From Candidatus Hydrogenedentota bacterium (GTDB taxonomy: Bacteria; Hydrogenedentota; Hydrogenedentia; Hydrogenedentales; SLHB01), in the NCBI GenBank assembly GCA_045863295.1, contig BTWA01000052.1, positions 1 to 27,588 of the forward strand: a DNA stretch of 27,588 bases, in the 5' to 3' direction. Under the pieces are notes generated by a model. That model did not search any database. It saw only the letters and a list, made by a program, of their open reading frames with translations, and had not been told where the DNA came from. Made by a program: the position numbers and the translations under genes. Position 1 is the stretch's first letter, and each line of letters starts with the position of its first letter. This document shows, one piece after another, positions 4,205 to 25,385 of the stretch.

Positions 4205-4353
4205 GATGCCGTAACACTCCTCACTTCCATTCGCCGGTGGCGTGTACCAAGGTTGTTCATGTCCGCTTTCGCTGCACTGCGTTCAAAACGAAGCCATGTC
4301 GCCATTGGCCCAGCCTTGGCGAGAAACATCTTGTCTACGCGCTTACTCTTCAT
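4201..4353 (-). CDS. Small basic hypothetical protein (50 aa) bridging the pseudokinase and HTH genes
   Basis: ATG 4353 overlaps the kinase 3' end, and the stop overlaps the next start (ATGA at 4204-4201). No recognisable motif. Confidence 0.4.
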   Translation of the reverse strand: MKSKRVDKMFLAKAGPMATWLRFERSAAKADMNNLGTRHRRMEVRSVTAS

Positions 4354-5953
4354 GTACCGATCCAGGTTGTCTCTGCCCTTGGGTTCCTGCCAACACATCC
4401 AGTTGAGCCGCGAGGCGCAGGGCGATTTGCTTGTCGCCACGCCGAAATGCCTCATACATTTGTTCGTAAAGCTTCTGCATATGCGCGAGCTCTTCGCGTA
4501 TGCGATGCTGGAGCCCCGAAACGATTGCGCTGTCGGGATTCAGCGAGGCCGCACGTTCCAGCAGGCTAAGCGCCAGGTCCCGTTCTCCGCGCCTCAGTGC
4601 ATCTTCGGTAGCCTGTGCGAGGTCGCGGAATCGCTCGCAACGCTTGGTAAACGCGTGCTGAGCTGCACTCCGGCTGTAGTGCCCTTGGTAGAGGGACTCG
4701 GCATGCACGAGCAAGTTTGCCTGCTCCTCAAGACTGATGTGCGCATCTCCGGACGAGATGGCCGAGTAGATGCGCCGGGCCTCGGACTCTCTGCTCTCAA
4801 GCGTGTTGAGAAGGCTCCGGGCGCCGACATGCTCGGGTGATTGGATCAGAACGTTCTGACAGGCACGTACCGCGCCTTCAAGGTCGCCGTGTTCCATGCG
4901 CTCAGTAGCGATCTCCCAGGCATCCACGTCAGGAGTGGGCGAGTTCGTTTCCGGCACTGCGCCATCCGAGGAACCGGGACAGGACTTTTGTTGTGCAAAA
5001 CACGCCCCCAGAGCATGCGAAACGGACTGGTAATCGGAATATCGGCAACCAGGGTCCTTCTCCAGGCAACGGTAAACAACCGCTTGAATATTTTCGGGTA
5101 TACCAGGGAGTTGCGGGGGCGGCGCCTCCTGGTGCAGCATTGCGAGGCGATCAGGCGGGCCTTGGAACGGCGCCTGCCATTGTGGGTGCATCAGTTCGAA
5201 GAGAATGACTCCCAGCGAATATATGGTGCTGCGAACGTCGCAATGCCCAGGACTGTTGAAGCGTTCAGGCGCCAGGTACACGGCGATACTTTGAACCTTT
5301 TCGTGCAGGTTGGTGGGTACAGCGTTCTTATCGTCGCAGTACTCCAGTCCGCCGATCTTCAGGTTTTCTGAAGCTATCAGCAGATGTTCCGGGGTGACGG
5401 CCAGGTGGACTAGACCGGCCTTATCAAGGGCCTCCAGACCTTGGCAAGCCTGCTGTACGTAACGAGCCACTTCCCACGCTCGGTTGGGCGTGTCCCGGTG
5501 ACCTTCGCGCATCCACTCGGACAAGGTGCCACCATTTGCGAACTCCAAGGTTAAGATACTGATGCTTCCCCCGCCCCAGCGGCCATGATGGAGTTCCAAA
5601 GGCCGTATGATTTGCCGATGGTCACGAATTTGGGTTCTCAGGCGATTCGTTTTCAGGAACCAGTCGGGTACTTGCTCTTCGATTCCTGCATGAAGTCTAG
5701 CTGTTACTTTTTCGCCGCCAATCGTGTCCTCCAGGAGATACACCCGGCCAAGCGCATCTTCGCCGGCGCAGCCGCGAACCGTGAACCTTTCAAGAAGCAT
5801 CTCGCCTACCGGAATCTCAATGAACGTCGGCCTCCGCGGTGTCGGCTTCCCAGGAAAGTACTCCCTCGCGTCCTGCGTGAGAGCCCTGTGCTTGCATTGG
5901 CCGGCGATTTCGTGGCCACCAGCCGGAACGATTGTAGAAGTAAGGCTTTTCAT
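4343..5953 (-). CDS. Hanks-type Ser/Thr kinase-fold protein with degenerate catalytic motifs (pseudokinase) plus TPR-like C-terminus
   Basis: GRVY, LEFANGGTL, GLVHLAVTPEHLLI, LKIGGLE, YLAPE, IYSLGVILFEL and RCLEKDP..RY subdomains are present. TPR-like helices follow (GDLEGAVRACQNVLIQSPEH; ALSLLERAASLNPD). Probable start 5953, just after the stop at 5956. Confidence 0.85.
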   Translation of the reverse strand: MKSLTSTIVPAGGHEIAGQCKHRALTQDAREYFPGKPTPRRPTFIEIPVGEMLLERFTVRGCAGEDALGRVYLLEDTIGGEKVTARLHAGIEEQVPDWFLKTNRLRTQIRDHRQIIRPLELHHGRWGGGSISILTLEFANGGTLSEWMREGHRDTPNRAWEVARYVQQACQGLEALDKAGLVHLAVTPEHLLIASENLKIGGLEYCDDKNAVPTNLHEKVQSIAVYLAPERFNSPGHCDVRSTIYSLGVILFELMHPQWQAPFQGPPDRLAMLHQEAPPPQLPGIPENIQAVVYRCLEKDPGCRYSDYQSVSHALGACFAQQKSCPGSSDGAVPETNSPTPDVDAWEIATERMEHGDLEGAVRACQNVLIQSPEHVGARSLLNTLESRESEARRIYSAISSGDAHISLEEQANLLVHAESLYQGHYSRSAAQHAFTKRCERFRDLAQATEDALRRGERDLALSLLERAASLNPDSAIVSGLQHRIREELAHMQKLYEQMYEAFRRGDKQIALRLAAQLDVLAGTQGQRQPGSVHEE

Positions 5954-5955
5954 GG

Positions 5956-7791
5956 TTACTGACGGTCCTTTTGTGCAAGCTTTTGGTTGACTACGGTACC
6001 CAGCGCTTTCTCGACCTGGTGCTGCACGGACCGCTGCCATTGGACATACTCGTGCCCGTGCAAGACGCCGCGGATGAAGCGCTCCAACGTCTGATTATGT
6101 TCGGCAACGTTGTGAACCAGTTGGGCGGGAGCAAATGAGAGGCCGGGTACGACATCGGTTCGGCCGTTCTCCTGCTTAAACCGATAGACCAATTCCAAGC
6201 GGTGACCTTCTCCGAGCGGCCTGCTTATCACCATGCACTCCTCCGGGGTTCCAATCGCGTCCGGAGTGATGACGCGCAACGTCTCGTTTTTGTACGTTAG
6301 ACCGATATCGTATGACTCATGGCACCCGACGATGGCCCTGAGGCATTCGCTGGCGTCAAATTGCGTTCCCCAGCAGTCCGTCACGTCCCATTCATGGAAA
6401 AGCATGCGTGGTCTTACGGGTTGTGCGAGAGCCGCAGCTACCTGTATGTGTTCGAGCGCCGTATCTTCGTCCATTCGAATGAGAGCCGCTTCGTTGGCAC
6501 TCAAGTTCGCCATCGTGGAGACATGCTCCAGCGCCATCTGAACTTCCTCTCCATGGTCGATATATGAAAGAGATTGAAGCGCGTCGAGAGCGGCCGCGAA
6601 ATGCATGTGCCGCATGAAAAAATGAGCTTGCCGCCAATAACTGGGAATTGCGGCGGTGGTGTGGGGCAGAGTGCGAATTACGTCTTGGCGCAGTTGGGCC
6701 TGACGGTGAATGTCTCCGTTCAGCCCGGCAATGTCGGCATACAGCGCGCTACGTAAACTCTCGGAGAATACTCCGCGATATGAGTCCATCAAGGACTCCG
6801 CGCGGCGAGCGTTTCGATCGGAGATTGCTTTCGCCACGTCAACGGCGCATCGCCTGGCTTCTGCGTTCCTCGCTTGACAGGTTGTCGTTACGTAGGTTGA
6901 GTATGAAACGCCGCAAATAACGTGAAACTCGCCGGTGAAAGGGGCACCGACCGGAGTTATTTCGCGTTCGTTAACCTGGAAGCTGTGGGCAGTGCCGTCT
7001 TGCTGTACCAGCAGTAGCGGCGCGCGATGGTCCAACGTCAGGCCGGCCGCAATGACGCGAAGTGGCGATTCCAGTTCGGATACCAGGTGGAACGGATTCG
7101 AACCCCAACATTTGACGAGCCCATCGAGCGAGCCTACGGTCGCAAGCGTTTCGTTCCACTCGAATAGGGCATAGTAGTCCCCCGCGTGTACCGAGTGAAG
7201 TTCGGTAGTTTGCTTGACTGTATCGACGCAGAGCAGCCCGCCACCCGCAACCGGAAAGACCGCCTTCTTGGCGGCGGTCCAATACAGACCCTTGGCAAGG
7301 CTATAGGGAACTGGCGGCCTCACATCGCCGGCGCACCTGATGGTAGTCGAGCCCTTCGATGCCCACAGCGCGACACATCCGTCGGCGCTAAAGCCGACGA
7401 GCGTGTTCCCGGCCATGACTTGGGACGAGATAGGCGCATTGCCCTCGAACGGAAGTTCGTACGGGCGATTGTACGGCGGACGCCAAAGAAGCCACTTCTT
7501 CGCCGTATCCGTGGAGACGAAGTCGCTTTCGTTCGTGAAGCGGACGTCAAGCACTGCGGCGCCCTGGTTCAGACGGCGCGACTTCATCTTGTGGTCCAGC
7601 AGATGCACCATTCCGTACGTATCGCCGGCAATCAAGCGAGTGCCGCTAGGATTGCGGTCGATGCTCGTAAAGCGATGTCCGCACGGAAGACTCATTAGGG
7701 AGTTCTCTTCGCCAAGGCGGATCAGCGCTTCCTGGCCGGCGATTAGCCCGCCGAGCAGCGGAACATCGAATTTTGACGGTGTGAGGTTCAT
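5956..7791 (-). CDS. WD40/beta-propeller protein with helical (TPR-like) middle and unknown C-terminal domain
   Basis: WD-like repeats: HRFTSIDRNPSGTRLIAGDTYGMVHLLD; AVLDVRF..FVSTD..KWLLW; HAGDYYALF..LATVGSLDGLVKCWG. TAATG overlap with the upstream gene. Confidence 0.75.
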   Translation of the reverse strand: MNLTPSKFDVPLLGGLIAGQEALIRLGEENSLMSLPCGHRFTSIDRNPSGTRLIAGDTYGMVHLLDHKMKSRRLNQGAAVLDVRFTNESDFVSTDTAKKWLLWRPPYNRPYELPFEGNAPISSQVMAGNTLVGFSADGCVALWASKGSTTIRCAGDVRPPVPYSLAKGLYWTAAKKAVFPVAGGGLLCVDTVKQTTELHSVHAGDYYALFEWNETLATVGSLDGLVKCWGSNPFHLVSELESPLRVIAAGLTLDHRAPLLLVQQDGTAHSFQVNEREITPVGAPFTGEFHVICGVSYSTYVTTTCQARNAEARRCAVDVAKAISDRNARRAESLMDSYRGVFSESLRSALYADIAGLNGDIHRQAQLRQDVIRTLPHTTAAIPSYWRQAHFFMRHMHFAAALDALQSLSYIDHGEEVQMALEHVSTMANLSANEAALIRMDEDTALEHIQVAAALAQPVRPRMLFHEWDVTDCWGTQFDASECLRAIVGCHESYDIGLTYKNETLRVITPDAIGTPEECMVISRPLGEGHRLELVYRFKQENGRTDVVPGLSFAPAQLVHNVAEHNQTLERFIRGVLHGHEYVQWQRSVQHQVEKALGTVVNQKLAQKDRQ

Positions 7792-8414
7792 TATCTCGAT
7801 AACCTGTCACGTTCCATTGAAGTTTCGACTCCGGGATACCCTCCGAAGGCTTCGATCTCAGCGTCGAGGCTAGGCTCTGGAGGCAGAAGTGCGGGTGCTC
7901 GCATGGGGGCGCTGGGCGACACAGGGCAAAAACGCTTGCTCGCTCTTCCAAGAGGCAACTGCTTTGCCACACTCTCGGCCAAGGCCGCTTTGAGCGCATC
8001 AATAACCTGTGCCGCGACAACTTGACGCTCTCCCAGCCAGCGGATATCTTCCAGAATCGAGTCTTCGCCTTCCCGTAGGAGGTTCTTTGGAGCATCGTGG
8101 TGAAGCGTCTCGGCTGCTCGGTCAACGTCGCGCACACGCCGGGAGAGCCGCGCCTGTTCACTCCAAATAAACGCAAGACACTCCTGAAATTGCAGCAGTT
8201 CGGATTGTGCCTGTTGTTCGGCTTCTTCCTTCCGGGCGTAAAGTGCTTCCGCAAAGAAACATTCTGAATGTCGTTCCTGGTACACCCTTGGCAGGGCCGC
8301 AACTGCGTCGCGCAAGTGAGCTGCACAGTCCAGCGCTCCCTCGGCGTGCGAATCGAAGTGCTCGCGCAGGTAGGCCAGCGAGCGCCAATCCTGATTTGGC
8401 CCAACCATACCCAT
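7791..8414 (-). CDS. Hypothetical helical/coiled-coil protein (207 aa)
   Basis: TAATG overlaps at both ends and Glu/Ala/Leu/Arg-rich helical composition. Confidence 0.7.
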   Translation of the reverse strand: MGMVGPNQDWRSLAYLREHFDSHAEGALDCAAHLRDAVAALPRVYQERHSECFFAEALYARKEEAEQQAQSELLQFQECLAFIWSEQARLSRRVRDVDRAAETLHHDAPKNLLREGEDSILEDIRWLGERQVVAAQVIDALKAALAESVAKQLPLGRASKRFCPVSPSAPMRAPALLPPEPSLDAEIEAFGGYPGVETSMERDRLSR

Positions 8415-8920
8415 TACTCGCCTCCTCGTTCGCGCACACCGCGAAGCTCGGCCTCAATCTCCTGGCTCCGCTTCAGGCAATCCTTCGCGGCATTGAGTTG
8501 TTCGCTGAGCAGATCCAGGTCTTCCTGGAGCGCGTCCTTCGTTTTTTCGATGTGTTCAATTGCTTCCTGCGTTTCGATGAGCGTGTCCGAGGCACGATCG
8601 AGATTGCCGTCCGCGGCCTCTTTGCCTTCGTCGAGTTCTTCCTGAAATTGCTCGCTTTCCTCGTGGACCTTCTCGAGGTCCCGGTCATGTTCATCGAAGA
8701 CCTCCGATGTAGCATCGTCCGCACCGTCGACCGCACGGTCCACGGCATCAAGACCCTCGGCTGTTCCGCCGCTTCGGTCCAACGATTCACGCAGTTCCCG
8801 GATGGTATTGAGATCATCCGCCGTGATTTTGAGTTCTTCCTGATGGTCCTTCATTTCTACGGAGATACGTTCGTTCCTATCGTCGATCTCCTGCCGCGTG
8901 GGTGTGGGTGTGTCTCTCAT
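8414..8920 (-). CDS. Highly acidic coiled-coil protein (168 aa)
   Basis: Asp/Glu-rich heptad-like sequence with a central SGGTAEG turn. ATGA overlap upstream and TAATG downstream. Confidence 0.8.
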   Translation of the reverse strand: MRDTPTPTRQEIDDRNERISVEMKDHQEELKITADDLNTIRELRESLDRSGGTAEGLDAVDRAVDGADDATSEVFDEHDRDLEKVHEESEQFQEELDEGKEAADGNLDRASDTLIETQEAIEHIEKTKDALQEDLDLLSEQLNAAKDCLKRSQEIEAELRGVRERGGE

Positions 8921-9780
8921 TGCAGGTCCTCCAACTCGTTTCTGTGTTCAACTATTCGATTGAGAAAAGCGAGCAGATCCAGCGCTTGCGGCTGGAGACG
9001 TTGCTCGACCTCATTGTGGAGGCGTTGGCGATGAGCCAACAGCTCTGGCGAGACGCCATTTCCCTGACCGATGAGGCGTTCGTAACTGTCGTGGTAGAAC
9101 TCATGGAACTCATCCTCGAATTCGTCGTAGATGCGCGATAACATGTCAACGGACGGCGCCTTTCCCTTCAGAAGCCGCTCCACTTGCTTCGTGCGCTGAA
9201 TAAGAAGCGTGGAAAACGCCGTCATGCCCTCGCTCAGGCGCAGAAGCCGTGCGGTTGTTATGGCTTCATCTGCCTCGCGGCGCCAGGGTTGGTCACGACA
9301 TGCCTCGCGGATTGCTTCGGGTGACGGTTTGCTCAGCAGGGCGGGTATGTCACTGAAATCACGCATCTTGACTAGCCGCGCACGCGGGCTGTGCGGCGTC
9401 GACACATAGGCGTAGCCGGGCTCGAGTTGGGCCAAGGCTTCGGTTTGAGTGGCGCTCAGCAGGGCGGCGCCCGCGAGCAGTTCGCGCTCGCTCCGCTCTT
9501 TAGTGCAGTAGATAGCCTTAATCGGCGTTAGGCTGACCGCGTCGTCGGCCACGTTCCTTACACTCTGATCCGCGCCATGGATACTTACGCCCAGCTTTCG
9601 GTGCTCCCGGACCGCACGGCAGTACAGCTTCGACAACGTGGCGCCTGGATCCATGACTTGGTCCGATTGTTGCGCAAGAGGATTGCGGCCGGCTATCAAA
9701 TGCAGTTCATCGATCAGTATCAAGAAGCGGACACGTTTTACATTTCGCGTGTTGTACGGCACTAGCCTTCTCCTTGGCAT
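8917..9780 (-). CDS. C-terminal part of a HerA/FtsK (DUF87/VirB4-like) ATPase
   Basis: Walker B LILIDELH and REHRKLGVSIHGADQS (arginine finger plus the conserved Gln motif). No Walker A in this ORF. Confidence 0.75.
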   Translation of the reverse strand: MPRRRLVPYNTRNVKRVRFLILIDELHLIAGRNPLAQQSDQVMDPGATLSKLYCRAVREHRKLGVSIHGADQSVRNVADDAVSLTPIKAIYCTKERSERELLAGAALLSATQTEALAQLEPGYAYVSTPHSPRARLVKMRDFSDIPALLSKPSPEAIREACRDQPWRREADEAITTARLLRLSEGMTAFSTLLIQRTKQVERLLKGKAPSVDMLSRIYDEFEDEFHEFYHDSYERLIGQGNGVSPELLAHRQRLHNEVEQRLQPQALDLLAFLNRIVEHRNELEDLQ

Positions 9781-11687
9781 GGGTCGCTGTGTGACGTCAA
9801 TAGATACTCCTCGATTCCCCTCAGGATGAACTGCATCAGGATGGACTTTTCATCGTCACCAAGCCCATCGAGGTCCAGAATCGTATACCCGTGGATCAAC
9901 GAGTCCATCGAGGGAACGTTAATGCCGGGAAGGAATATGGTGCGAAGCGCGCCGGTGAAGAGTTTCTCGAGGCGAGTCAGTGACGCCGACATAAGGTTCT
10001 GGGATGTATCACCGGCATAGCCGAGCTTCTTGACCTGGCTACGCAGTTCCGGCAACAACATCTCCATGCGTGGCGGATTGTCTGGATCCGGATACCTTCG
10101 GTAGAGCTTGTAAATGGATTTGACGAGTGCCCTTTCAAACGCTGGAAAGCTTGGCAGTGATCCCATGATGCATTCCGCGACACCACGTACTTTGAGGTCC
10201 AGGGGGATGCCCTTCTTCCACGTGAAGGGATTAAATGCTCCTTCGGACACGCCTTCCGGCCCAAACGTGTAGTACTGCAGATCCTGCGCGAGGCGGCGTA
10301 CGTTTGGGTCGGAGTGATCATGCAGGAGCTTGAGGCCGGTTTGCTCTCCTGCGATGGGAGCGATGTAAAGGAACGGAACGCCGCAGCGGTGCGACTCAAA
10401 CGAGATAGTTATAAGCGATAGGGTCTTGCCGGATCCGGGAATTCCCAACGCAATGGCGCTCTGACTGGATTCGGACTCGAGCACTCCCTCCTTCCGGCCG
10501 AGTTCCCCTCTGGGGCCAACGACGACGTCTCCGAAGGAAAAAAAGATATCTGATGCTGAAACCGTCGAATCCATACTGTGGTAAATGCAGTAGGGAGAGA
10601 CTACATCAGCCACGGGCCATTGGAAGATTCCGCGGAGTTCCTGGGGGGATGCTAACTGACGGAGGTTTTGGAGGTCGCGGTAGTATGCGGGCATACCTTG
10701 CGCGGCCAAGTACTCGAAAGGACGAAGGTACTCGACATGCCCGTAGCGGACGGCGTCGACTAGATTTCCAAAGTCGGGGTCACCGCAAGGTGTTACAACC
10801 AATGCGTACGAAGCGTCTTTGAACGCGGCCATCGCCAGTGACGAGGCAACGGTTCTAGCGGTTGCTACGCGAGTCGCGAGTACACGGATAATGAAATGCA
10901 CCGATGGCCCGCGCAAATTCTCTCTGACGCGCTGAGTGCTCCTGGCTACGAGGTCGGCAGCAGGTTCCTTACGGTAAGGAAGGGGCAGCAGCCGGCGTCT
11001 TTCATCCCCAACAGCTTCATGCAAGGCGTGCGAGTCATCGAACGGCCGGTGAGCGCGCCCAATTTCGTTGAGCAACGCGCAGTGTTTCGCGAGGGCATGT
11101 CGTTGGGGCGTCGTGTCCTCCGGCTCGACGCCGATATAGATTAGTACCGGTTCCTGTACGGTATTGAATGTTCGATCCACCAGCAAGAGTTCGTTTCTGG
11201 ATTGCGGGATGAAGGGAAAGGGCTCATACAAGAGCGATGGTACGTTCGGATTCTCGCCGGCGGTGGTCACGGGAGACAGCGCCTGCTCCATGCGCACGAT
11301 ATCGCACGCTGCGCTGAAGACACTGAAGTCGATGTGAGCAGGCTCAGTGCGTTTGATTGCGTAGAGCCCATCCAAGCTGCCTTTCGAGAGCCACCCGTCT
11401 ATCCCTTCGACGATTGCCTTGTCGCGGGACGCGCCTCGCGCCATGAGACACAGCCGGTCTTGTTTCTTGTCCGGCGCATCGTTCGGAGCGTAGGACCAAA
11501 GGAGATTCATTGCGCAGGAGCCTGCGGGTTGATGCGCAACACTGTTGAGTTGCGACGAGAATTCCTTGCCCACCGTATCTTCCACCCGGTCGCCGTAGAA
11601 TTCTTTCAACCGCGGATCGCCGCGCGAGGGCAACCGGGTTGCTGCGTAGGTTTCACCCAGAGTCATCTTTGTTTGTTCTGTTCTCAT
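9762..11687 (-). CDS. N-terminal part of a HerA/FtsK-like ATPase with a long N-terminal extension
   Basis: Walker A ALGIPGSGKT, FNPF and TILDLDGL. Ends just before the expected Walker B, which is in the overlapping next frame. Probable start 11687 (ATGA overlap with the E1 stop). Confidence 0.75.
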   Translation of the reverse strand: MRTEQTKMTLGETYAATRLPSRGDPRLKEFYGDRVEDTVGKEFSSQLNSVAHQPAGSCAMNLLWSYAPNDAPDKKQDRLCLMARGASRDKAIVEGIDGWLSKGSLDGLYAIKRTEPAHIDFSVFSAACDIVRMEQALSPVTTAGENPNVPSLLYEPFPFIPQSRNELLLVDRTFNTVQEPVLIYIGVEPEDTTPQRHALAKHCALLNEIGRAHRPFDDSHALHEAVGDERRRLLPLPYRKEPAADLVARSTQRVRENLRGPSVHFIIRVLATRVATARTVASSLAMAAFKDASYALVVTPCGDPDFGNLVDAVRYGHVEYLRPFEYLAAQGMPAYYRDLQNLRQLASPQELRGIFQWPVADVVSPYCIYHSMDSTVSASDIFFSFGDVVVGPRGELGRKEGVLESESSQSAIALGIPGSGKTLSLITISFESHRCGVPFLYIAPIAGEQTGLKLLHDHSDPNVRRLAQDLQYYTFGPEGVSEGAFNPFTWKKGIPLDLKVRGVAECIMGSLPSFPAFERALVKSIYKLYRRYPDPDNPPRMEMLLPELRSQVKKLGYAGDTSQNLMSASLTRLEKLFTGALRTIFLPGINVPSMDSLIHGYTILDLDGLGDDEKSILMQFILRGIEEYLLTSHSDPCQGEG

Positions 11688-12886
11688 TTCGTTGGCTCGT
11701 ATGATCCGCAGGAGGGGCAGTGCGGGTCGCGCGGCAGAGGTAATCCATACCAACGAAGAATGGCCAGTTCGGCCACGCCGTAACCCAATGGCGGGATCCC
11801 GGCGATGGAAGTATTCGCTTCTCGGCGGTTGAACCAGATGTAGAGGGGCGCGGCGAGGTCTTCATCCAAGCTGCGGAGCGTTGACTCCTTGTCCCGCAGC
11901 AAGTGTTGAATAGCGAGCTTTGTCGCCATCGTGGCGACCGGCGCTATGTCGGTGGCAAGACCAGGTTCAATCGGCGCGGGACGGTCGCTGTAAGCAGGGG
12001 CAGTGTCCGATGGTTCACTTTGGGTCATTTCCGGGTTCGAATGGACGTGACAGCTGTAGCACGGCCCGCTACCCGGGCGCAGGATCAGGACTTGGCCGCC
12101 GTAGGCCCTCCGGCGAAGGCCTGCGAAGATGCATGCCACCGCGGAATCAAGGCATACTCGGTTCAAGATGACACGGCCTTCGTGGTTGTCCAACCCGGCG
12201 ATGACCAAGGTACTCTTCTGCACGATTTCCCTGGCTTCGCCGGAGCTTGCCCACGTGAGACGCGATTCACGTGTCTTCACCTGTACACGCGGGTTCTTAC
12301 CACGTATGAGTTCTTCTACTGAGTGGGTCTTATGCCGGCCGACGTGGCTTAGGGGCGAGGGATGGCGGCATGTGTTTCCGGGTTCCAGAACGTCGTGGTC
12401 GACGAGCGTGAACGCTCCAACACCGGCTTTTGCAAGCCCGAGCGCCACCTCGGCGCCCAGAGAGCCCACACCGAAGATCGCCACCTGCTCCTCGCGCAAC
12501 GCGTCGGTCTCAAGAAGCCCGCTTATCCGATGGAAAATGTCCCGATCATCGATAACGGTGAGCGCAGCATCCTTCCATCCTTGGTTTTCTTGAAGCCTAA
12601 CGCGACATTCCATGTGGGAGGCGGGAAGCAACCCTGCGGGAGCGGAATCAGACCGGCACGAGAGGACGATACTCGGCATCGCATCAACCGGGGACTCATC
12701 CGTCAATGTATCCAGAGGCCCGAAGAGTACGGAAATCTCGCACGGGTTACCGGAGGTGAATTCGTCTGATGCGAGAAGAGAAATGACGCCTTCCCCGGCC
12801 CAATGCCTCGCCGTCCAGCGGAACGGACCAGTGGACTTACGCAGCTCGTCCAACAGGGATTGCGGCAAGACTACACGGGGAGTCAT
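11684..12886 (-). CDS. ThiF/MoeB/E1-family adenylyltransferase with ~115-aa N-terminal extension
   Basis: IFHR; VAIFGVGSLG; LVDHDVLEPGNTCRH; GRHK; IAGLDN; zinc pairs PCYSC and CPSC. Confidence 0.93.
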   Translation of the reverse strand: MTPRVVLPQSLLDELRKSTGPFRWTARHWAGEGVISLLASDEFTSGNPCEISVLFGPLDTLTDESPVDAMPSIVLSCRSDSAPAGLLPASHMECRVRLQENQGWKDAALTVIDDRDIFHRISGLLETDALREEQVAIFGVGSLGAEVALGLAKAGVGAFTLVDHDVLEPGNTCRHPSPLSHVGRHKTHSVEELIRGKNPRVQVKTRESRLTWASSGEAREIVQKSTLVIAGLDNHEGRVILNRVCLDSAVACIFAGLRRRAYGGQVLILRPGSGPCYSCHVHSNPEMTQSEPSDTAPAYSDRPAPIEPGLATDIAPVATMATKLAIQHLLRDKESTLRSLDEDLAAPLYIWFNRREANTSIAGIPPLGYGVAELAILRWYGLPLPRDPHCPSCGSYEPTK

Positions 12887-12889
12887 CGT

Positions 12890-13093
12890 TCACGCCCATC
12901 CCAGGTCATCGACATCCACGTTCAACGTGGACTCGGGATTGTCCGACGGACTGGGTTCGCGGAAGCGATTCCGCTCCTTGTCGTACACATACCGCCGCCC
13001 TGCGCCCTGAAACCGGTTCTCCGCCTCTCCTGCAATTTGCAGACCCCGCAAAATCTCGTCGGTAAACGTGTTTGGGCTAGCATTGTCGCTCAT
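12890..13093 (-). CDS. Small acidic protein (67 aa) ending DDLGWA; candidate substrate/modifier of the E1-E2-JAB cassette
   Basis: GAGGAGG RBS and ATGA overlap with the E2 stop; ends 3 nt before the E1 start. The function is inference. Confidence 0.75.
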   Translation of the reverse strand: MSDNASPNTFTDEILRGLQIAGEAENRFQGAGRRYVYDKERNRFREPSPSDNPESTLNVDVDDLGWA

Positions 13094-13545
13094 GGGGCAT
13101 ACCTCCTCTTCAAATCCCAAAGCATGTCGTCAATCGATTGGCCGGTACGAAGATGCTGTTCGTACAAATGAATCCAAAGTTGACCACGCTGTATCACGGC
13201 CAAACACGACTTTCTCGGGTCCCAGTCCTTGCTGTGGCAGAGTCGCGTCCAGCCGAGTTCTTCACGGCGGCCCAATGTGTGAAACCGGTGAGATGGACAG
13301 GTCAAGTGATCCCCGTGATAATCGAAGAGCAGCGATGGATATGTGACGTACAGGTATGGCTCTTCGTCTGGATACCCGCTGCCCAATTCAAGCCGCAATT
13401 CATAGGGGTGGCGGAAACCGGGACAACTCTCATAGCCGACTACGTACGCCGTGCTCCAAGAAGTGAAGAAGACGAAGTGCGGCAAGAGACGGTCCAAGAC
13501 GTCCCGTTCTGCCCGAATCCGATTTTCCTGGCGCGCCGTCCACAT
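13090..13545 (-). CDS. Prokaryotic E2/ubiquitin-conjugating (UBC-fold) protein
   Basis: RIRAE N-terminal helix; YELRLELGSGYPDEEP (YP..P); H...G...LCH candidate catalytic Cys; WDP...LAVI....W. Lies between the JAB and E1 genes. Confidence 0.8.
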   Translation of the reverse strand: MWTARQENRIRAERDVLDRLLPHFVFFTSWSTAYVVGYESCPGFRHPYELRLELGSGYPDEEPYLYVTYPSLLFDYHGDHLTCPSHRFHTLGRREELGWTRLCHSKDWDPRKSCLAVIQRGQLWIHLYEQHLRTGQSIDDMLWDLKRRYAP

Positions 13546-13548
13546 GGT

Positions 13549-14616
13549 CTACTCGCTCCCCCGGTCTACAGGCTGGTTCTCACCCGGTATACCTTCGTCC
13601 TGCCCCTCGAATTGGCCTCTATCGGCACAAACATGATCAGTGCAAGAGGGTTCCGGCATCGCCTCGGGGCAATCATGATTGGACGAATCGGTCGTACCGC
13701 GGCGCTGGCTGAAAAGTGCGCCGTGCAATAACCGGCCTTCGTTCGACAGATACTGGAAAAAGCTCATGATCCTTTCGGAAAGGCGGTTGTTGTCGCACTT
13801 AAGGCGAAACTTCAGATTGGGACCGAGTCGAATCGTTACATGGAACTGGCCGTCCTGCTCGGTCACTTCACAGTAGTCGCGCAGATGATGCGGAAGTGCG
13901 AGCAATTCCTCCTCGAGCTGGCTCGGGAGAGAGCTTTCCTCGCGGGGAAAGTACGGAGTCGAAAAGCAGATGCAATTGCTTGGATGGGGAGCGCTATCAG
14001 AGCGAAGGCCCGCAGCCTTTTCGCCGGAAGCCTGAAAAGCCAGCCGGTGGGGACTGGCGGAGGGGATGGATTCGACGGGTATGGGCGACAGCAACTCCGA
14101 ATCTGTACGGAGCACAAAGGAATTGATGCATACATGAGCGCCCGCTCCGTGGGACCGGAACCGGCGTGCCGCCGGCGAACACGGTTCGCGTATTTCGCCA
14201 AGATGATGGGAGTCGTTCGAACCGATGGTGAGGATAAAGATAAGGAACTCAGCCATCCCGTTTTTCTTTGCGATTGCGGCAGCGCTCTCGATATCGCGCG
14301 GGCTTGGCGTACTAAGGCCCAAATAGTGATGTGAATGCCACGTACCCCACAGCCCAAGCCGAAAGTTGTCGACAATCCACCTATGGCTTGCATGTAGGGA
14401 GGTGAGGTCCTTCCGAAAGAAGCACGGTTCATGCACCGCGTTCGGGCCGGGTGGCGTTGCAAACGTGATGACGATATCGTTCCCGCGCGAACGATACCCG
14501 TAAAGTTCCCCGCCTGTTTCAACCGGCGCGAAATGAATTGCGTCGCCTGCGACTGCTTGGGCCTCGGACTCGAATAGCGCCACGCGATGGGCAATGCAAC
14601 TTGTCAACACGCTCAT
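13549..14616 (-). CDS. JAB/MPN (Mov34) metallopeptidase with C-terminal extension
   Basis: ETGGELYG, ATPPGPNA and GTWHSHH...PSPRD give the complete E...HxH...S..D motif. Probable start 14616 with GGAGG RBS. Confidence 0.9.
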   Translation of the reverse strand: MSVLTSCIAHRVALFESEAQAVAGDAIHFAPVETGGELYGYRSRGNDIVITFATPPGPNAVHEPCFFRKDLTSLHASHRWIVDNFRLGLWGTWHSHHYLGLSTPSPRDIESAAAIAKKNGMAEFLIFILTIGSNDSHHLGEIREPCSPAARRFRSHGAGAHVCINSFVLRTDSELLSPIPVESIPSASPHRLAFQASGEKAAGLRSDSAPHPSNCICFSTPYFPREESSLPSQLEEELLALPHHLRDYCEVTEQDGQFHVTIRLGPNLKFRLKCDNNRLSERIMSFFQYLSNEGRLLHGALFSQRRGTTDSSNHDCPEAMPEPSCTDHVCADRGQFEGQDEGIPGENQPVDRGSE

Positions 14617-14933
14617 GACCCACTCCTCCAGGAGATCACCATGCATGCACGAGAACGGTTGCATGAACTTGCGAATGCGACTAAGTCGCGTGCGTTTCTA
14701 ACAACGCGTGCAACGACAGTTGACGCTGGATGCACCGAAACCGTAGTGCCCTCACGGCGGCAGCGGCGCACACGCTTAGGCCGAGACGTTTCAATGAAAC
14801 TAGCGGGCCGGTAGCTTGGCGCAGAGCTGCCACTATGGCCGAGATGGGAAGACGTTTCCGAGAGCACGCACTCGCGACCATCAGGAATACTGCGCCGCGT
14901 GGCCGCGTTATCGGAATACCGGCTAACAAACAC
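14613..14933 (-). CDS. Possible Arg/Ser-rich hypothetical protein (~106 aa) bridging the HD and JAB genes
   Basis: GTG at 14933 with GGGAG upstream overlaps the HD stop, and its TGA overlaps the JAB ATG. No motif; could be non-coding. Confidence 0.3.
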   Translation of the reverse strand: MFVSRYSDNAATRRSIPDGRECVLSETSSHLGHSGSSAPSYRPASFIETSRPKRVRRCRREGTTVSVHPASTVVARVVRNARDLVAFASSCNRSRACMVISWRSGS

Positions 14934-15651
14934 GGCGAGCGCTCCCTTCTGCGATGAACGTGTTGGCCGCCTTGATGGATTCGTAGATCTGGTGTTCCAA
15001 GATTCGCGCGGCGTCGGTATACCGGCCAAGTCCGCCGGACTTCGTACCGCAAATGGGCAGCAGTTCGTCGCTAGTTTCGCGGATATACTCGCGCATCTTT
15101 TCCACGGAGAACGCGCCGCGCATCGAAAGCAGGTTGCTGAGCCTATCGGCCAGCTTCGGGATACGGGCTGAACGGCAGCTCCGCACCTGCGCGAAGTATT
15201 CAGCGGGATGCTCCGATTCGACCTTGGTCAGGGCGGCCACCGACGTCACTACGCGATCCGGCAGACCATACGCGTTTAGTCCCTCATTCGGCATGCGGTC
15301 ACTTGCTTCTTCGGCGGCGTCATGCATGACGGCAGAGATCAGGACATCCGCCTCGCGGACACCAGCAAGAAAAGAGAACCGGGCCGCATCTAGGAGATGG
15401 GCCAGATAAGGCTCACCGGTCCTGCGAAAGATGCCGGAATGAAGGTGGGCAGCAAGGATGATCGCGTCTCCAATCCGCATCAGTTCTGGTTTCGGAAAAG
15501 CACCATCGAGCATTTCCCACAGCCGGGAAAGGCAGGTATTCATGTAGGCGTCATACCTCGCCGGCAAATTGGTAGCTGCCAGCTCTGCGCCAGAAAGAAC
15601 TACGCGCCGACTTAGGTATATCGGGGTAGTCATCGAGACCGGAGCCTTCAT
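14923..15651 (-). CDS. RelA/SpoT-type HD-domain protein (small alarmone hydrolase/Mesh1-like)
   Basis: AAHLHSGIFRRTGEPYLAH; SAVMHDAAEE; VAALTK; KLADRLSNL. No synthetase domain. Confidence 0.9.
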   Translation of the reverse strand: MKAPVSMTTPIYLSRRVVLSGAELAATNLPARYDAYMNTCLSRLWEMLDGAFPKPELMRIGDAIILAAHLHSGIFRRTGEPYLAHLLDAARFSFLAGVREADVLISAVMHDAAEEASDRMPNEGLNAYGLPDRVVTSVAALTKVESEHPAEYFAQVRSCRSARIPKLADRLSNLLSMRGAFSVEKMREYIRETSDELLPICGTKSGGLGRYTDAARILEHQIYESIKAANTFIAEGSARRVC

Positions 15652-15982: not shown

Positions 15983-16006
15983 TCATTCCGAACTTGTTCG
16001 GAATGA
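15983..16006. promoter_or_regulatory. Perfect 11-bp inverted repeat with 2-nt spacer; operator-like
   Basis: TCATTCCGAAC-TT-GTTCGGAATGA, overlapping the stop codon of 15983..16714. Confidence 0.5.
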
Positions 16007-16714
16007 ATCCGAAGGAGATGATCCGTCGAGCATGGGCAGGGTGGGGCAAAAGTAGACGTTCCCCGGCGCAGCGTTCACGAAGTAAGGGGTTGGGACAGAT
16101 ATCGCCTCGGCGAACGGTGACCCTAGCTTTGATTTGACGTACTGAAGGGATTCGTTAATTTGCTTTGGGGTAACCCAGTATTCTTCAGGCGGAAATCCGT
16201 CAGATCCAAACGACCGGAAGAGCTTCCGTCCAAAATGCAAATAGGCCTCTTCCAGCTCATTGATTGTGCAGTACGCGGCAGCCCTGCCTTGGGTGGAAAA
16301 TTGCTCGTAAGTGATTAGGATATGCTTACGCACGAGTGCCCAAATGGGCACATAGCGAATCGTGGAAAGACCTTCGACGCGCCAATCGCCAGTCGTTCCA
16401 TCGAGAATGATAATCTGCCCGACCTGCGTTCGAGGCAACATGCGCCCATTGCCTACGAAGCGTCTGTCGAGCAAGTGCTCCTGTAGTATCACGACAAAGC
16501 GACTGTCAAAGAGCGGGTCAATTTCGCTGGTCATCCGAGTTATGGATTCCGCGAAAGTAACGCCTCCTACAGATAGTTCAGGATTCGGATAGCGCGAGAG
16601 CGTTAATCCGCCTTGCCACACTGGCCTCAGCAGGTGCCGCAAAAGCGCTCTCTGCTGCTCGGGAAGTCCCAGGGGCAGCGTTGATTCTTCATCTTCTCTG
16701 GCTTCGACCGGCAT
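15983..16714 (-). CDS. Hypothetical protein (243 aa), possibly with C-terminal winged helix
   Basis: Long ORF at the head of the cluster. TINELEEAY...YW..PKQINESLQYVKSKLG weakly resembles an OmpR-type wHTH. Confidence 0.6.
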   Translation of the reverse strand: MPVEAREDEESTLPLGLPEQQRALLRHLLRPVWQGGLTLSRYPNPELSVGGVTFAESITRMTSEIDPLFDSRFVVILQEHLLDRRFVGNGRMLPRTQVGQIIILDGTTGDWRVEGLSTIRYVPIWALVRKHILITYEQFSTQGRAAAYCTINELEEAYLHFGRKLFRSFGSDGFPPEEYWVTPKQINESLQYVKSKLGSPFAEAISVPTPYFVNAAPGNVYFCPTLPMLDGSSPSDSFRTSSE

Positions 16715-16891: not shown

Positions 16892-17041
16892 CAGGATCGG
16901 ATAGCAAATTGCACCATCGAGAAGCAGCCCACTCGATGTATTCGAATCTTCTGGCGCCGTTTCCCTAAAATTTCCGTTGTTGACGCGATGAGGGGCGTCC
17001 ACGATTGGACGCGCTTGCGTATCTGCCATAGGAGCACAACG

Positions 17042-20000
17042 ATGTCGGGTGCTGGCCAATCAGCCCTACTTCAAATCTGTTTGGAACGCTTGGGCTTTGG
17101 AGCTTCCACCAGCCAAATCGGAAGGGCGCTGACAGGTATCTGGAGCGATAGGGCATGGCCAAATGGCAACTACCTTGTGACAGACACGGTTTTTTCGAAT
17201 TTGGCCGGTCTCCCGTTGTCCAAATCATCAAATATTCGCGCTAGGATCGCGGACTTGAATCGCAAGGTCCGCCGCGAATGGCTGAAAAACGGCCACGATC
17301 CTTTTCCGGCGCTGTTTGTATACCGCTTCCATGTTCCCAGAGATTGTCGTCACTATGTCCTTGCGCTTTTTGAGCCTTCATTGGCCGAGCATCTTGCTGT
17401 TATTTTTCTAGACCACCAGGACGGCGTGATTACGAAGACTGGGCCATCCCTGCACGCAGAAGAGGGGCAAATTCTGGCGGAGTACTTCGGGTGTGACCTG
17501 CAGCACCTGCATCGCAAAGGCCGCTACTTGGGACAAGGGCGATGGCGGATTCCGTTCGGACGAGGCGCCCTATCTCGAAAGCAAGTCCAAAGTCAACTGC
17601 AACGTCGCATTCTCGTGCATCTTCCACAACCGAGTCGCGGCGAAGATGCCACAGTTTCCAGAAAACATCGTGGAAAGACTGGAGGAGCCAGAGCAGACGC
17701 ACACCCCCGATTCGTTGGACTTTGGGGGGCGCCAGGAATCGGAAAAACCTATCACCTAAACAAGACGGCGCGGTCCGCCATATTACGCACGCATTTCTGC
17801 AGTGCAATTTGCTTCCTGACCATGGGCCAAGAGAAGACACCACTTGCAATTGATGCCAAGAAAGCCGAGCTTCTCGCGTTCTTAGGCCAGTGCCCCACTG
17901 CAAAGGTCGATCTACGAAAGTTAACGGAGCGGAAAAGAGTACTTGTCATATTGGATGACGTTCATTCTGCAGCGCAGGTGATGCCTTTCCAGTCGCTGAG
18001 CCAGTATTGCTGCATATTGGCTACGTCCCGAAGCCGCCGGGTCCTCGACGACGTCGAACTGCCAAAACAGCTTGTGCACCTATCTTCAATGAGTGACAAC
18101 GACGCGCGAATGGTACTTATGAAATCCGTGGGCGATTCAGTCAATAGCATACCGCCTGCGCTTCTCGATGGGCTTACTGTACGCTGTTCGGGCATTCCTT
18201 TAGCGCTCAAAATTGTTGGCGGTCTGCTTAAAAAAAAGCCCGAGTCGGCCGCGACGATCATTAGTCGCTTCGACAAACCGGGGTCCGGGCGCTTCAAACG
18301 ATTGCGGAAGTATCTCCAGGACTTCACGCCGCATCATGAGGCTGATGAAGGCGGGGAGACCGTGCTCTTCAACGTCCTGGATGTCGCCATCCATGAGTAT
18401 CTGAGCGTTGCAGAGCTGCGGGACCTTCGTCTACTGGCCGCAACACCAAAGAATGCCCGGATACCCTTCTCCGCATTGGAGACGATTTGGCGAGCCGACC
18501 CAGGCGAGACCAGAGAGACTATTGAGCGGCTTAGCGATCTGGCCATGCTTGAGGTAGATTGGGACGAACGACTCATCCAGATTCACGACGTCATACACGC
18601 TTTTCTTCGCGCGTACCACGATGACTCAGCGGCATCGCAGCGTGCGCACCGGACGATCCTTCGCGCCTACGCGGACAGGCATTGGCAAACCAGGAATCGA
18701 TTTTCTAGCAAGGATGGGCGCCTTCCCTGGTGGGAACTGGACGACGACGGCTACATATGGAATTTCATTGGTCATCATCTGTTGGGGGCAAATTGGTCCC
18801 GAGAGCTGCAGGGGCTTCTGCTAGATGCCCGCTATCTCTGCAAGCGCGTTACCTTCGGCACAGTTGAATCGCTTCTGCGTGATTTTAGTGGACTTCCATA
18901 TGAACTCGCCCGACCATTGGTGCCCTTGCGAATGTCACTTGCCCGCGCGTCCCATATTCTTATTCGTGACCCGCACCACATCTGGGGTGTGCTGTCATTG
19001 CTCGTTGAAGAAGATGCCTCCAAGCATGCCAAGATGCTCAGACGTACGCTTTCGCTCATCCAGCCGCCAAGACCCTGTCTCATCCCGCGTCCCGCCCGAG
19101 CCGGAACGCGCGATTTTATTCGCGTTTCGAGTGAGGTACTTATTCACGAAGCAGGCATTGCATCGTTCTCGATCTCTGAAGATCGGAAAACAATCATGGT
19201 GGCTACTGAAGAGCCCAGCGTCGCGGTATGGCGCAAAGCCGAGGACGGTATGGGCTATGTGAAGAAGTCATGCTTAGATACTGAAAGGCCCCTATGTGTT
19301 CTTCAGAATGGTCAGGGTCTGTTATCCGTCAATGGCAAGAGTCTCTTACATCGGGGCATAAGCCGCCAGAAGGTATCTAAGAGCCGGGTCGTATACTCGG
19401 ACTTCACGCCAAGGGACACGGTTTCGGCATTCCAAGCGGGAAACCATTTCCTACTTTGGAACGCAAATTTGGTTCATGTGGTTTCGCTTGCGCGGAGATC
19501 CGTAAAATGGCAATTTGAATCTCCAAATGGGCAAAGGATAGTCGCAGCCAGCTTCGGCGCAGAGCATTCGGAAGTGGGGGTCATACTTTCGGACGACGCT
19601 TCTCGGCTGCGTTGGCTGGTTTTTGATGTTACGAGAAGATTCTTAGAAACCGATACACGTCTTGCAGACGACGGTTTTCCTCATCGGTTCGGCTATTGGA
19701 GAACTAAGGGCTGCTTTGTTGCGTTGGGAACCTCCGGCGACCTCTTGGGCATCGACCGCGCCGACGGTTCTGTTCAGATTCTGGCCCGGTCTCCAAAGTA
19801 TGTCCAGGATGCGTACGCTTTCGTTCTTGACGGGCATAGGGATCGGTTTGCGGTCGCATTTACAGGCAATCGAATTGCTGTCATCACAGGTTGTCCCGTG
19901 CCGGCGGACGTGGTGACTCTTGACGATCATGCGGCCCCGATTGTTCAGATGGCTTTCACGCCGGACGCTGATCGGTTTATTTCTGCTGATTTAGCCGGCA

Positions 20001-20209
20001 TTGTAAGAGTGTGGGACCTAGAACAGCGTACTCGCACGAAAGGAATACTTACGCTGGAATCAGAGGTACTGTCACTAGCGGCCTCGGATACGGGAAAGCG
20101 TATTGCGATGATGGACCGTCAAGGAGAAGTAGTTATCCTGGACGACGAAGATCGGTTTCATCCTTGGAGAGCAGTAAATGGATGTGGTGAGGACGTTTCG
20201 GAGCAATGA
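17042..20209 (+). CDS. STAND NTPase, APAF-1-like: unknown N-terminal domain + NB-ARC + helical domain + WD40 repeats
   Basis: Walker A GAPGIGKT; Walker B RVLVILDDV; ILATSR; CSGIPLAL (GxP); IHD (MHD motif); DGYIWNFIGHHL; WD repeat HAAPIVQMAFTPDADRFISADLAGIVRVWDL. AGGAG RBS favours start 17042 over 16988. Confidence 0.92.
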   Translation: MSGAGQSALLQICLERLGFGASTSQIGRALTGIWSDRAWPNGNYLVTDTVFSNLAGLPLSKSSNIRARIADLNRKVRREWLKNGHDPFPALFVYRFHVPRDCRHYVLALFEPSLAEHLAVIFLDHQDGVITKTGPSLHAEEGQILAEYFGCDLQHLHRKGRYLGQGRWRIPFGRGALSRKQVQSQLQRRILVHLPQPSRGEDATVSRKHRGKTGGARADAHPRFVGLWGAPGIGKTYHLNKTARSAILRTHFCSAICFLTMGQEKTPLAIDAKKAELLAFLGQCPTAKVDLRKLTERKRVLVILDDVHSAAQVMPFQSLSQYCCILATSRSRRVLDDVELPKQLVHLSSMSDNDARMVLMKSVGDSVNSIPPALLDGLTVRCSGIPLALKIVGGLLKKKPESAATIISRFDKPGSGRFKRLRKYLQDFTPHHEADEGGETVLFNVLDVAIHEYLSVAELRDLRLLAATPKNARIPFSALETIWRADPGETRETIERLSDLAMLEVDWDERLIQIHDVIHAFLRAYHDDSAASQRAHRTILRAYADRHWQTRNRFSSKDGRLPWWELDDDGYIWNFIGHHLLGANWSRELQGLLLDARYLCKRVTFGTVESLLRDFSGLPYELARPLVPLRMSLARASHILIRDPHHIWGVLSLLVEEDASKHAKMLRRTLSLIQPPRPCLIPRPARAGTRDFIRVSSEVLIHEAGIASFSISEDRKTIMVATEEPSVAVWRKAEDGMGYVKKSCLDTERPLCVLQNGQGLLSVNGKSLLHRGISRQKVSKSRVVYSDFTPRDTVSAFQAGNHFLLWNANLVHVVSLARRSVKWQFESPNGQRIVAASFGAEHSEVGVILSDDASRLRWLVFDVTRRFLETDTRLADDGFPHRFGYWRTKGCFVALGTSGDLLGIDRADGSVQILARSPKYVQDAYAFVLDGHRDRFAVAFTGNRIAVITGCPVPADVVTLDDHAAPIVQMAFTPDADRFISADLAGIVRVWDLEQRTRTKGILTLESEVLSLAASDTGKRIAMMDRQGEVVILDDEDRFHPWRAVNGCGEDVSEQ

Positions 20210-21122: not shown

Positions 21123-21359
21123 TGCTGGCCGATGGTTTGCCTGATGCAAAATGCCCGCGAGTTGTTCACCGTGGTCAGGCGCTTCGCCGTAACGAGTCGG
21201 TGATCACCATCGTCAGGATCCTCAATGAGCATAGTCGTTACGGTCCGTACAGAGAACGCATCTGGGCAGAGTGAAGCAACCCTTTGTTGAACGATGCCCC
21301 CCTTTTTTCTCTTGAACACTTATTCATATGAGTCGGGATAACCCCGACAGCCACACGCC

Positions 21360-21397
21360 AAAAGAGAGACATTCTCCTTGGGGAGATGCCTCTCTTT
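21360..21397 (-). terminator. Probable intrinsic terminator of the minus-strand MoxR module
   Basis: Minus strand AAAGAGAGGCATCTCC...GGAGAATGTCTCTCTTTT forms an imperfect stem ending in a short T run, just after the stop at 21406. Confidence 0.55.
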
Positions 21398-21405
21398 CGC
21401 CCGCA

Positions 21406-24281: not shown

Positions 24282-24532
24282 GATTCTTCTCCTTTTGTTG
24301 AACTGAGCTGAAGTGGCCAAGAGCGAAGTCCCAACCGAGAGACATCGCGTATTGCGCTTACTCAACGCTGCGCAAAAATCCAGTCGGAACTTCATGCGTC
24401 AGCGATGAGCAACTGAAACGGTGCTGTCGCACGCACCGCTCTATAACGTGGAAGGCCTCGCCTCGGGACTGCCGAGTGTTCGACAGTTGGCAACCCGATT
24501 GGCGGGACAGAGAGTAGGGAAAGGGTCGCGAT

Positions 24533-25156: not shown

Positions 25157-25190
25157 GGCTTAGCAACTTCGATTGATATGCGCGCCGCTG

Positions 25191-25385
25191 CTAGGGTTCG
25201 AGTCTTGTGCTGAACACGAGGAACTCTGTTCCGTTGCCAGACTTGGCTTCGCGCGCATCCTCATCGTCGATGCCGTTTACTTGCAGCCAGGCGTTTTCGG
25301 CGTTCCGAGCGTCCGCCTCGCTGCGGAAAACCCGGGCGGCCGAGACAATGCCTTGGCATGTTTCGACGGTTACGTACACGTTCAT
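25191..25385 (-). CDS. Small hypothetical protein (64 aa), paralog of the C-terminal half of 25479..25847
   Basis: AGGAGGT RBS. GIVSAARVFRSEADARNAENAWL versus GIVRGVEAFRTAESATKAEQEWL. Confidence 0.8.
   Translation of the reverse strand: MNVYVTVETCQGIVSAARVFRSEADARNAENAWLQVNGIDDEDAREAKSGNGTEFLVFSTRLEP

Follow-up and report, generated by a model that had tools for sequence, protein, structure and literature searches.

A minus-strand cassette of four genes, encoding a JAB/JAMM metallopeptidase, an E2-like protein, a small protein of 67 amino acids and an E1-like ThiF adenylyltransferase, lies within a 27,588-nucleotide stretch of the genome of a Candidatus Hydrogenedentota bacterium (positions 1 to 27,588 of contig BTWA01000052.1, assembly GCA_045863295.1; this whole stretch is called the window). 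We propose that the cassette is a split conjugation module resembling Cap2 and Cap3 of the CBASS system (short for cyclic oligonucleotide-based antiphage signalling), and that its dedicated substrate is the small protein, which does not look ubiquitin-like (non-Ubl) and would be activated at its terminal alanine. This reading is tentative and we give it a probability of about 0.45. It is built on the gene order, the folds, families and catalytic residues of the enzymes, the conservation of the small-protein family and of its C-terminal motif, the fusions of this family to the E1, and its likeness to the C-termini of known Cap2 substrates.

Gene order, conservation and distribution of the cassette

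The four genes are arranged head to tail and are tightly coupled, in the order JAB (371 amino acids, 13549..14664), E2 (151 amino acids, 13090..13545), small protein (67 amino acids counted from its ATG, 12890..13093) and E1 (400 amino acids, 11684..12886), all on the minus strand and with starts taken from the longest open reading frame (ORF). The start of the small ORF overlaps the E2 stop codon (ATGA), and the E1 ATG follows 3 nucleotides past the stop of the small ORF. An earlier interpretation of this DNA made from its letters alone, the sequence-only reading, had credited the small gene with a strong ribosome-binding site, and indeed a Shine-Dalgarno sequence GAGGAGG (13102..13108, minus strand) stands 8 nucleotides before its ATG and is present in the related genome G094 too. 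The same reading had placed the cassette at 11684..14616; position and strand stand, but the end at 14616 is an internal methionine (Met17) of the JAB ORF 13549-14664, to which the G094 homologue aligns from residue 1.

The JAB-E2-peptide-E1 cassette is real, as had been supposed. Its small gene accompanies the E2, the E1 and the JAB as an obligate, conserved partner. Among the operon's proteins the small one is conserved best: it has 94% identity to its counterpart in G094, the nearest genome, compared with 89% for the E1, 86% for the E2, 69% for the JAB and about 60% for the ATPase encoded downstream, while the three further downstream proteins, p168, p207 and p611, share 77%, 53% and 57%. 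Of the codon changes between the two small ORFs, 11 are synonymous and 4 non-synonymous; over residues 31-67 the two proteins do not differ. Because of this conservation the small ORF is a real gene, and a chance ORF is ruled out.

The small-protein family was reached only via E1 neighbourhoods. A word-index search with the small protein returned one relative only (94% identity), the same search with the E2 returned one relative (86% identity), and 135 genomes of the phylum, searched in six frames, gave only this genome (G000) and G094. The E1 has 307 relatives at E ≤ 1e-10, and from a 42-sequence E1 alignment we obtained 47 genomic loci, one genome per species. These span more than ten phyla, with members in Hydrogenedentota, Planctomycetota, Desulfobacterota-type lineages, Omnitrophota, Lentisphaerae, Armatimonadetes, Actinomycetota, Bacteroidales, Pseudomonadota, Verrucomicrobia, Myxococcota, Acidoferrales (which we take to be Acidobacteriota) and Chloroflexia. 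Many of the loci are from metagenome-assembled genomes with possible frameshift errors, and related loci are not independent.

Searches with phmmer across the 47 loci found the JAB in 37 and the E2 in 41. Five loci start within the E1; the other 42 hold DNA upstream of it, and in all 42 the small domain is directly upstream of the E1 or fused to it. A hidden Markov model (HMM) from the first 23 small-domain sequences detected it in 41 loci, and a diverged copy in L032 was spotted by eye. In 27 of the 42 the small gene is separate. The JAB, the E2 and the small gene are the only genes that are kept with the E1 in all effector contexts.

A profile search of 1.84 billion representative proteins with the small family yielded 307 clusters (at 50% identity) with E ≤ 1e-3, 85 of them with E ≤ 1e-10, and 118 of the 148 representatives that were fetched are no longer than 95 amino acids. 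In two library proteins, P0217 (205 amino acids) and P0263 (159 amino acids), the small domain is repeated in tandem, with two to three copies, recalling polyubiquitin; metagenome scans for the gene context of these two gave no match.

The conjugation-type enzymes and the motif of the small protein

The JAB protein has an N-terminal JAB domain followed by a C-terminal extension of about 220 amino acids without assignment. It matches the PADLOC JAB (Cap3) models with E 1e-11 and Pfam Prok-JAB with E 1.8e-4, the latter under the cut-off of that model, and the JAMM residues E49, H110, H112, S121 and D124 are present in 37-38 of 38 homologues. No family model of Pfam or PADLOC matches the E2, and its assignment comes from structure: all 47 rows listed in a Foldseek search of the PDB with the AlphaFold2 (AF2) model (predicted local distance difference test, pLDDT, 95.7) are UBC E2 chains, with E 3e-3 to 2e-2 and template modelling (TM) scores of 0.44-0.59, and include the CBASS CdnG-E2 structure (8hsb) and BubB (9eae). 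This is further supported by UBC matches of the E2 profile to the PDB at E about 1e-3 and by C103, H86 and H89, three residues kept without exception in all 25 sequences (25 of 25).

The E1 comprises an N-terminal domain of about 115 amino acids, the adenylation domain and a CxxC…CxxC zinc site. It matches Pfam ThiF with E 1.5e-34 and the PADLOC E1-E2 (Cap2) models with a best E of 2.5e-29. According to the E1 alignment it keeps the ThiF-type invariant Arg, the Gly-rich loop, the Asp, Asn and Lys, and the zinc site. A Pfam scan of 13 fused and 7 free E1s returned nothing other than ThiF and Rossmann-type noise. Judged by these residues and matches, the enzymes of the module look active and Cap2/Cap3-like.

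The members of the small-protein family share an N-terminal amphipathic helix, a hairpin of the type G-x-K-L-V-Y-D…K and the C-terminal motif [IV]-T-P-E-D-x(2,3)-aromatic-[A/G/S]; the window protein has the helix, a KLVYD-type hairpin and the motif, and ends …NVDVDDLGWA. The AF2 model, computed from a 38-row alignment, has a low pLDDT of 61 and places a helix at residues 7-27, a hairpin at 35-38/43-45, a strand at 56-59 and a helical turn at 61-64. At this low confidence, which is compatible with an unusual fold, the order is helix-strand-strand-strand-short helix, unlike that of a beta-grasp. A fold search with this low-confidence model gave a best Z of 2.5 and no fold match, a PDB profile search with the small family gave chance matches only (E 0.5 or worse), and a Pfam scan of 38 family members gave one chance match and no family. 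The sequence-only reading is thus borne out on three points: the protein lacks a terminal GG (it ends DDLGWA), no beta-grasp is evident in the model or in the PDB profile and Pfam searches, and its layout of a helix and a short hairpin is much like that of the model.

Conservation of the motif was counted in an HMM-guided alignment of 183 rows, made up of 145 representatives and 38 family rows, which includes some duplicates so that the rows are not independent. The motif Asp is present in 162 of the 183 rows, and the anchor column holds F, Y or W in 107. Another 59 rows, among them the window protein, have S, A or G in this column because their aromatic anchor stands one column earlier. A residue follows the anchor in 136 rows, and 97 of these have A, G or S there (41, 39 and 17 rows). 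The W-A of the window protein aligns with this aromatic-[A/G/S], and exact aromatic-Ala ends are found in the window protein (W-A, as GWA) and in L039 (F-A). The closest fused relative of the window protein reads …DLGWG and then runs on into the E1. Beyond the motif the sequences diverge fully, with tails of 0 to about 15 residues. A rough parse of the C-termini with regular expressions was also made; since it mis-anchors some sequences, we rely on the HMM-column counts.

These counts also bear on how the C-terminus would be used. The sequence-only reading had suggested either that the JAB exposes the Gly two residues from the end by trimming off WA or that the terminal Ala is activated directly, and had set conservation of a C-terminal G-aromatic-A among small ORFs beside homologous E1 and E2 genes as a check. 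The aromatic-[A/G/S] is kept, but the column of the proposed Gly is not conserved (G in 20 of 183 rows) and neither is the extreme C-terminus, an outcome that this reading had itself named as refuting. In view of the Gly column, trimming of WA is not supported and was dropped, whereas the comparative data (the W-A alignment and the likeness to the RFA ends described below) are in line with the terminal Ala being activated directly. A C-terminal Gly or Gly-Gly of the Ubl type is found neither in the window protein, which ends W-A, nor as a rule of the family, whose tails are variable.

The motif is not confined to the small protein and occurs also on the C-terminal tail of many E1s, past the last CxxC. 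With a strict pattern it is found there in 17 of 120 homologues, where 500 shuffles gave 1.6 on average and 7 at most, and an Ala comes next in 9 of the 17. Inspection by eye identified it in about 20 of 46 E1s of the loci, two of which end exactly in …ALFG; the window E1 is without such a tail. Since it recurs on the E1's own C-terminal tail, the motif appears to act as an independent linear peptide.

Proposed mechanism, known systems and alternative readings

In the mechanism that we favour, the E1 would bind the C-terminal peptide [IV]-T-P-E-D-x(2,3)-aromatic-[A/G/S] and adenylate its last small residue, so that in the window the terminal Ala of …DDLGWA would be activated directly, with no trimming. 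The E1 alignment reveals no conserved Cys beyond the zinc site, hence no conserved catalytic Cys, and for this reason the acyl group would probably pass directly to Cys103 of the E2, which would hand it on to a target. The JAB would cut off variable extensions behind the motif, free the E1-fused domain and reverse the conjugation. This account, in which the motif serves E1 and JAB as a handle and the small protein is the dedicated substrate, is the most economical one and is suggested by the aromatic-[A/G/S] in which the motif ends, by its position at or near the C-terminus of two different proteins and by the Cap2/Cap3-like nature of the E1 and JAB. Complex prediction with alignments of the E1 and the small protein gave no answer (runs of 0.02, 0.41 and 0.01, no contacts) and counts neither way.

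According to reports on type II CBASS, Cap2 is an E2-linker-E1 protein that acts on the cyclase: it adenylates the C-terminal residue, a Gly or Ala that conjugation requires, and conjugates this protein. Cap3 is described there as cleaving exactly after the last residue of the substrate, also in linear fusions, and CdnD of E. cloacae, which ends …TGRFA, as lying bound at the adenylation site of Cap2. The genome under study has a canonical type II CBASS of its own, on another contig (C16; L082, about 3836-8834), with a SAVED-endonuclease effector, a cyclase ending …GGRFA, a 612-amino-acid Cap2 and a Cap3-like JAB, beside an HmaB-like methylase; a search of the phylum with the PADLOC model PDLC00855 returned mostly housekeeping ThiF/MoeB and also led to this locus. 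The cyclase of a canonical type II CBASS in G133 likewise ends …GGRFA.

The cassette resembles CBASS in its ThiF-type E1 matching Cap2 models, in its UBC-fold E2 with an invariant Cys and in its JAMM peptidase, which matches Cap3 models and has an intact site. By sequence, its candidate substrate, in which no beta-grasp is evident, ends in aromatic-Ala as do CdnD and the cyclase of its own genome (RFA), and in four related loci SMODS and TIR-SAVED genes follow directly downstream of the cassette. It differs in encoding E2 and E1 apart, on either side of the small gene, and in its dedicated candidate substrate of about 60 residues, which has no enzymatic domain and often carries a variable extension or an E1 fusion. 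In addition, the E1 is without the conserved catalytic Cys, the small protein and N-terminal region have no profile likeness to the Cap2 linker or to the N-terminal two thirds of Cap2 as a whole, and family scans find no cyclase (CD-NTase) or nucleotide-activated effector in the window operon, where the module is attached to a HerA-like ATPase operon. The Bil/Bub systems, consisting of a bacterial Ubl, E1, E2 and deubiquitinase, are similar in that E1, E2 and peptidase each have a gene of their own, accompanied by a small gene, and in their defence-island context, and BubB is among the Foldseek matches of the E2; in contrast, the small protein here has no beta-grasp signal. The sequence-only reading had spoken of a new modifier class. 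This is overstated, since conjugation of a non-Ubl protein via its C-terminal Gly or Ala by E1-E2 and JAB enzymes is already described for type II CBASS. Full-text searches of the literature, with subscription journals and supplements outside their scope, found no account of a small non-beta-grasp protein between E2 and E1.

Several observations weigh against a conjugated small protein. The small domain is fused in frame to the N-terminus of the E1 in 11 of 42 loci, and in four more (L056, L059, L063 and L067) it runs into E1-like sequence with ORFs that are broken or joined to the E2. The linkers from the motif to the first E1 strand are 0 to about 12 residues long, and in some library proteins …DMFA leads directly to this strand, which suits a structural subunit. 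The first half of the motif is a strand of the mini-domain in the low-confidence model. About 29% of rows have a bulky or charged residue behind the anchor, and among the five free small proteins of the SMODS-linked clade this residue is bulky in four (M in L035, Y in L048, L in L052 and L066) and G only in L044. According to the rough parse, the aromatic residue is the very last one in 7 of 109 proteins. The SMODS-linked loci encode a cyclase-like protein which itself ends …LFG plus 6-8 residues and may be the real substrate. To these is added that the E1 has no conserved catalytic Cys outside the zinc site.

The small protein may never be conjugated and be instead a detachable N-terminal subunit of the E1 or a pseudo-substrate, the true substrate being the SMODS protein, p207 or the E1 tail. 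As a subunit it would help to dock the separate E2, as the Cap2 linker domain and the N-terminal domain of ATG7 do; as a pseudo-substrate its tail would plug the E1 or JAB site and gate the module. This is the main rival reading, somewhat less probable than the first but kept alive by the fusions, by the bulky post-anchor residues in part of the family and by colinearity with Cap2: E2 (151), small protein (67) and E1 (400 amino acids) follow one another as in Cap2 (612 amino acids) and add up to a similar length. The gene boundary lies exactly within the linker of the fused proteins, the free E1s beginning at the strand after it, and the overlap with the E1 start encodes some of the tails behind the motif (e.g. 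L035), which look as if left over from gene fission. When residues 1-195 of a fused homologue were the query of a language-model search, 'Cap2 central linker' clusters came first (score 0.80), which we treat as a lead only. The SMODS tails end in …LFG plus an extension in 4 of 4 loci, and of 21 p207 tails that were read 9 have hydrophobic-Gly-Pro and 4 more hydrophobic-Gly. Profile comparison does not bear out the linker, however: hhalign aligned fused small-E1 homologues with the Cap2 of this genome at a probability of 98.6% over 200 columns of the adenylation domain only, and for the N-terminal 190 residues (small protein and E1 N-terminal domain) against two Cap2 sequences it gave 0.12%, with no likeness outside the adenylation domain. 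Moreover, its presence on the E1 C-terminal tail shows the motif to work as a free linear peptide and not as part of a fold, a C-terminal activation site would predict both the preference for A, G or S after the anchor and the exact W-A, F-A and F-G ends, and conservation is higher in the small protein than in the E1. Nor do the fusions exclude a free C-terminus, because Cap3 cuts linear fusions and, in Iyer 2006 and Kaur 2020, N-terminal Ubl-E1 fusions and the release by JAB of a Ubl lodged in a larger protein are described for other bacterial systems. These share with part of the present family an N-terminal modifier-like domain on the E1 and a JAB in the operon, but their fused domains are beta-grasp Ubls; in the operon types 6a-6e set out in Iyer 2006, the modifiers are beta-grasp or the E1 is fused to the E2.

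The sequence-only reading had also considered a ThiF substrate akin to ribosomally synthesized and post-translationally modified peptides (RiPPs). On such a view the small protein would be a precursor whose C-terminus the ThiF-type enzyme adenylates and chemically modifies, in the way that MccB acts on MccA, with the JAB as leader or tail peptidase and no transfer to other proteins. The E1 profile does match the solved structures of MccB (E 3e-20) and PaaA (E 7e-13), in the adenylation domain alone; like these enzymes the E1 has an extra N-terminal domain beside its ThiF adenylation domain, and a small candidate substrate with a defined C-terminus is encoded directly beside it. To our knowledge, MccB/PaaA-type systems have no E2 and no JAB. 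Here, a UBC-fold E2 with an invariant Cys stands beside the E1 in 41 of 47 loci and the JAB in 37 of 47. Conserved genes for export, immunity or tailoring do not accompany the cassette, whose neighbours are of the defence type (HerA-like ATPase, SMODS/TIR-SAVED, TIR), and the closest relatives of E1 and JAB in the defence library are Cap2/Cap3 models. As a Cys-bearing E2 and an intact JAB accompany the E1, a RiPP-like role is very improbable. Just as improbable, in our view, is that the substrate is a canonical beta-grasp Ubl from a gene elsewhere, with the small protein as an unrelated regulator. Nothing speaks positively for this, though the family-library scans covered part of each locus and the low-confidence model is compatible with an unusual fold; among the window operon proteins and 36 scanned neighbours no family of the ubiquitin, ThiS or MoaD type was found, and only the JAB, the E2 and the small gene stay with the E1 as effectors change.

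Returning to the small protein as a conjugated substrate, a wider version of this proposal is held more tentatively still. The widespread family of about 60 residues (307 clusters), in which no beta-grasp is evident, may be a genuine tag, matured by the Cap3-like JAB from extended, tandem or E1-fused precursors and activated by the split Cap2-like E1 and E2 at a C-terminal aromatic-Ala/Gly, the four genes forming a portable switch for at least three defence effector modules (HerA-like ATPase operon, SMODS with TIR-SAVED, and TIR).

Effector modules and genomic neighbourhood

The cassette is a portable module, accompanied here by a HerA-like ATPase operon and elsewhere by SMODS and TIR-SAVED or by TIR genes. 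In 26 of 47 loci, the window included, a HerA/FtsK-like ATPase and three other proteins are encoded downstream of the E1, and this operon is probably a defence system. In the window the P-loop ATPase (8917..11753, minus strand) is split into two overlapping ORFs of 663 amino acids (9762-11753) and 287 amino acids (8917-9780). It is a single ORF of 917 amino acids in the 80%-identical relative G094 and one of about 917-1000 amino acids in many other loci. This indicates a frameshift around 9762-9780, be it a true disruption of the gene or a mistake in the assembly; in some relatives (L024, L054) the ATPase is split at a different place. The full-length homologue in L049 has weak NCBIfam matches to CedD/HerA.

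Three minus-strand genes follow. The coiled-coil protein p168 (8414..8920) has homologues in 20 loci and weak coiled-coil-type matches only. Homologues of p207 (7791..8414) were found in 16 loci by phmmer and in 20 by profile search. Behind a Pro-rich linker they end in E-x-x-x-L-[IL]-x-[MLF]-G-P plus a few variable residues, with the consensus …L[IL]x[MLF]G[P/G] (read from L024, L038, L040, L041, L043, L054, L056, L059 and L061), and the window protein reads …EIEAFGG…; this tail could be another one handled by E1 or JAB. The last conserved gene of the module, p611 (5956..7791), has homologues in 16 loci and no family match in the library scans.

SMODS and TIR-SAVED genes follow the cassette in four loci and TIR proteins in one. 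The SMODS genes (L035:3764-4648, L048:7940-8827, L052:7942-8820 and L066:8055-8933) are directly downstream, their products end in …W[RK]xLFG plus 6-8 residues, and the TIR-SAVED effector is encoded next. The SMODS loci with the JAB-E2-small-E1 cassette are a CBASS variant with split E1/E2 and the small protein.

Just upstream of the JAB, on the minus strand, lie genes for an HD_4/RelA-SpoT-like HD-domain protein (14923-15651) and a 243-amino-acid protein (15983-16714). Both occur in the same order in G094, with 76% and 65% identity, and may be part of the system in this clade. Downstream of p611, a Ser/Thr kinase with TPR repeats (4343-6040, minus strand) has PADLOC matches to PD-T4-6 and MADS6-like models and homologues in L055, L024 and L033. 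The rest of the window (16988-27170) looks like a conflict-system island, with a STAND NTPase of the NB-ARC/APAF1 type with WD40 repeats (16988-20209), a WD40 protein (20178-21122), a MoxR-type AAA ATPase (22794-24395), a SUFU-family protein (24533-25156) and a putative metallopeptidase with DUF2201_N (25860-27170).

Ubiquitin-type conjugation is thought to need a beta-grasp modifier, and the one exception we know of is the CBASS cyclase, which is tagged onto its targets via its own tail. If the reading proposed here is true, a dedicated mini-protein that offers little besides such a tail would mean that E1-E2-JAB chemistry can use a minimal non-ubiquitin tag, and it would explain the role of Cap2/Cap3-like modules in operons without a cyclase. 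The small family in any case marks a widely spread uncharacterised operon of a HerA-like ATPase and three further proteins.

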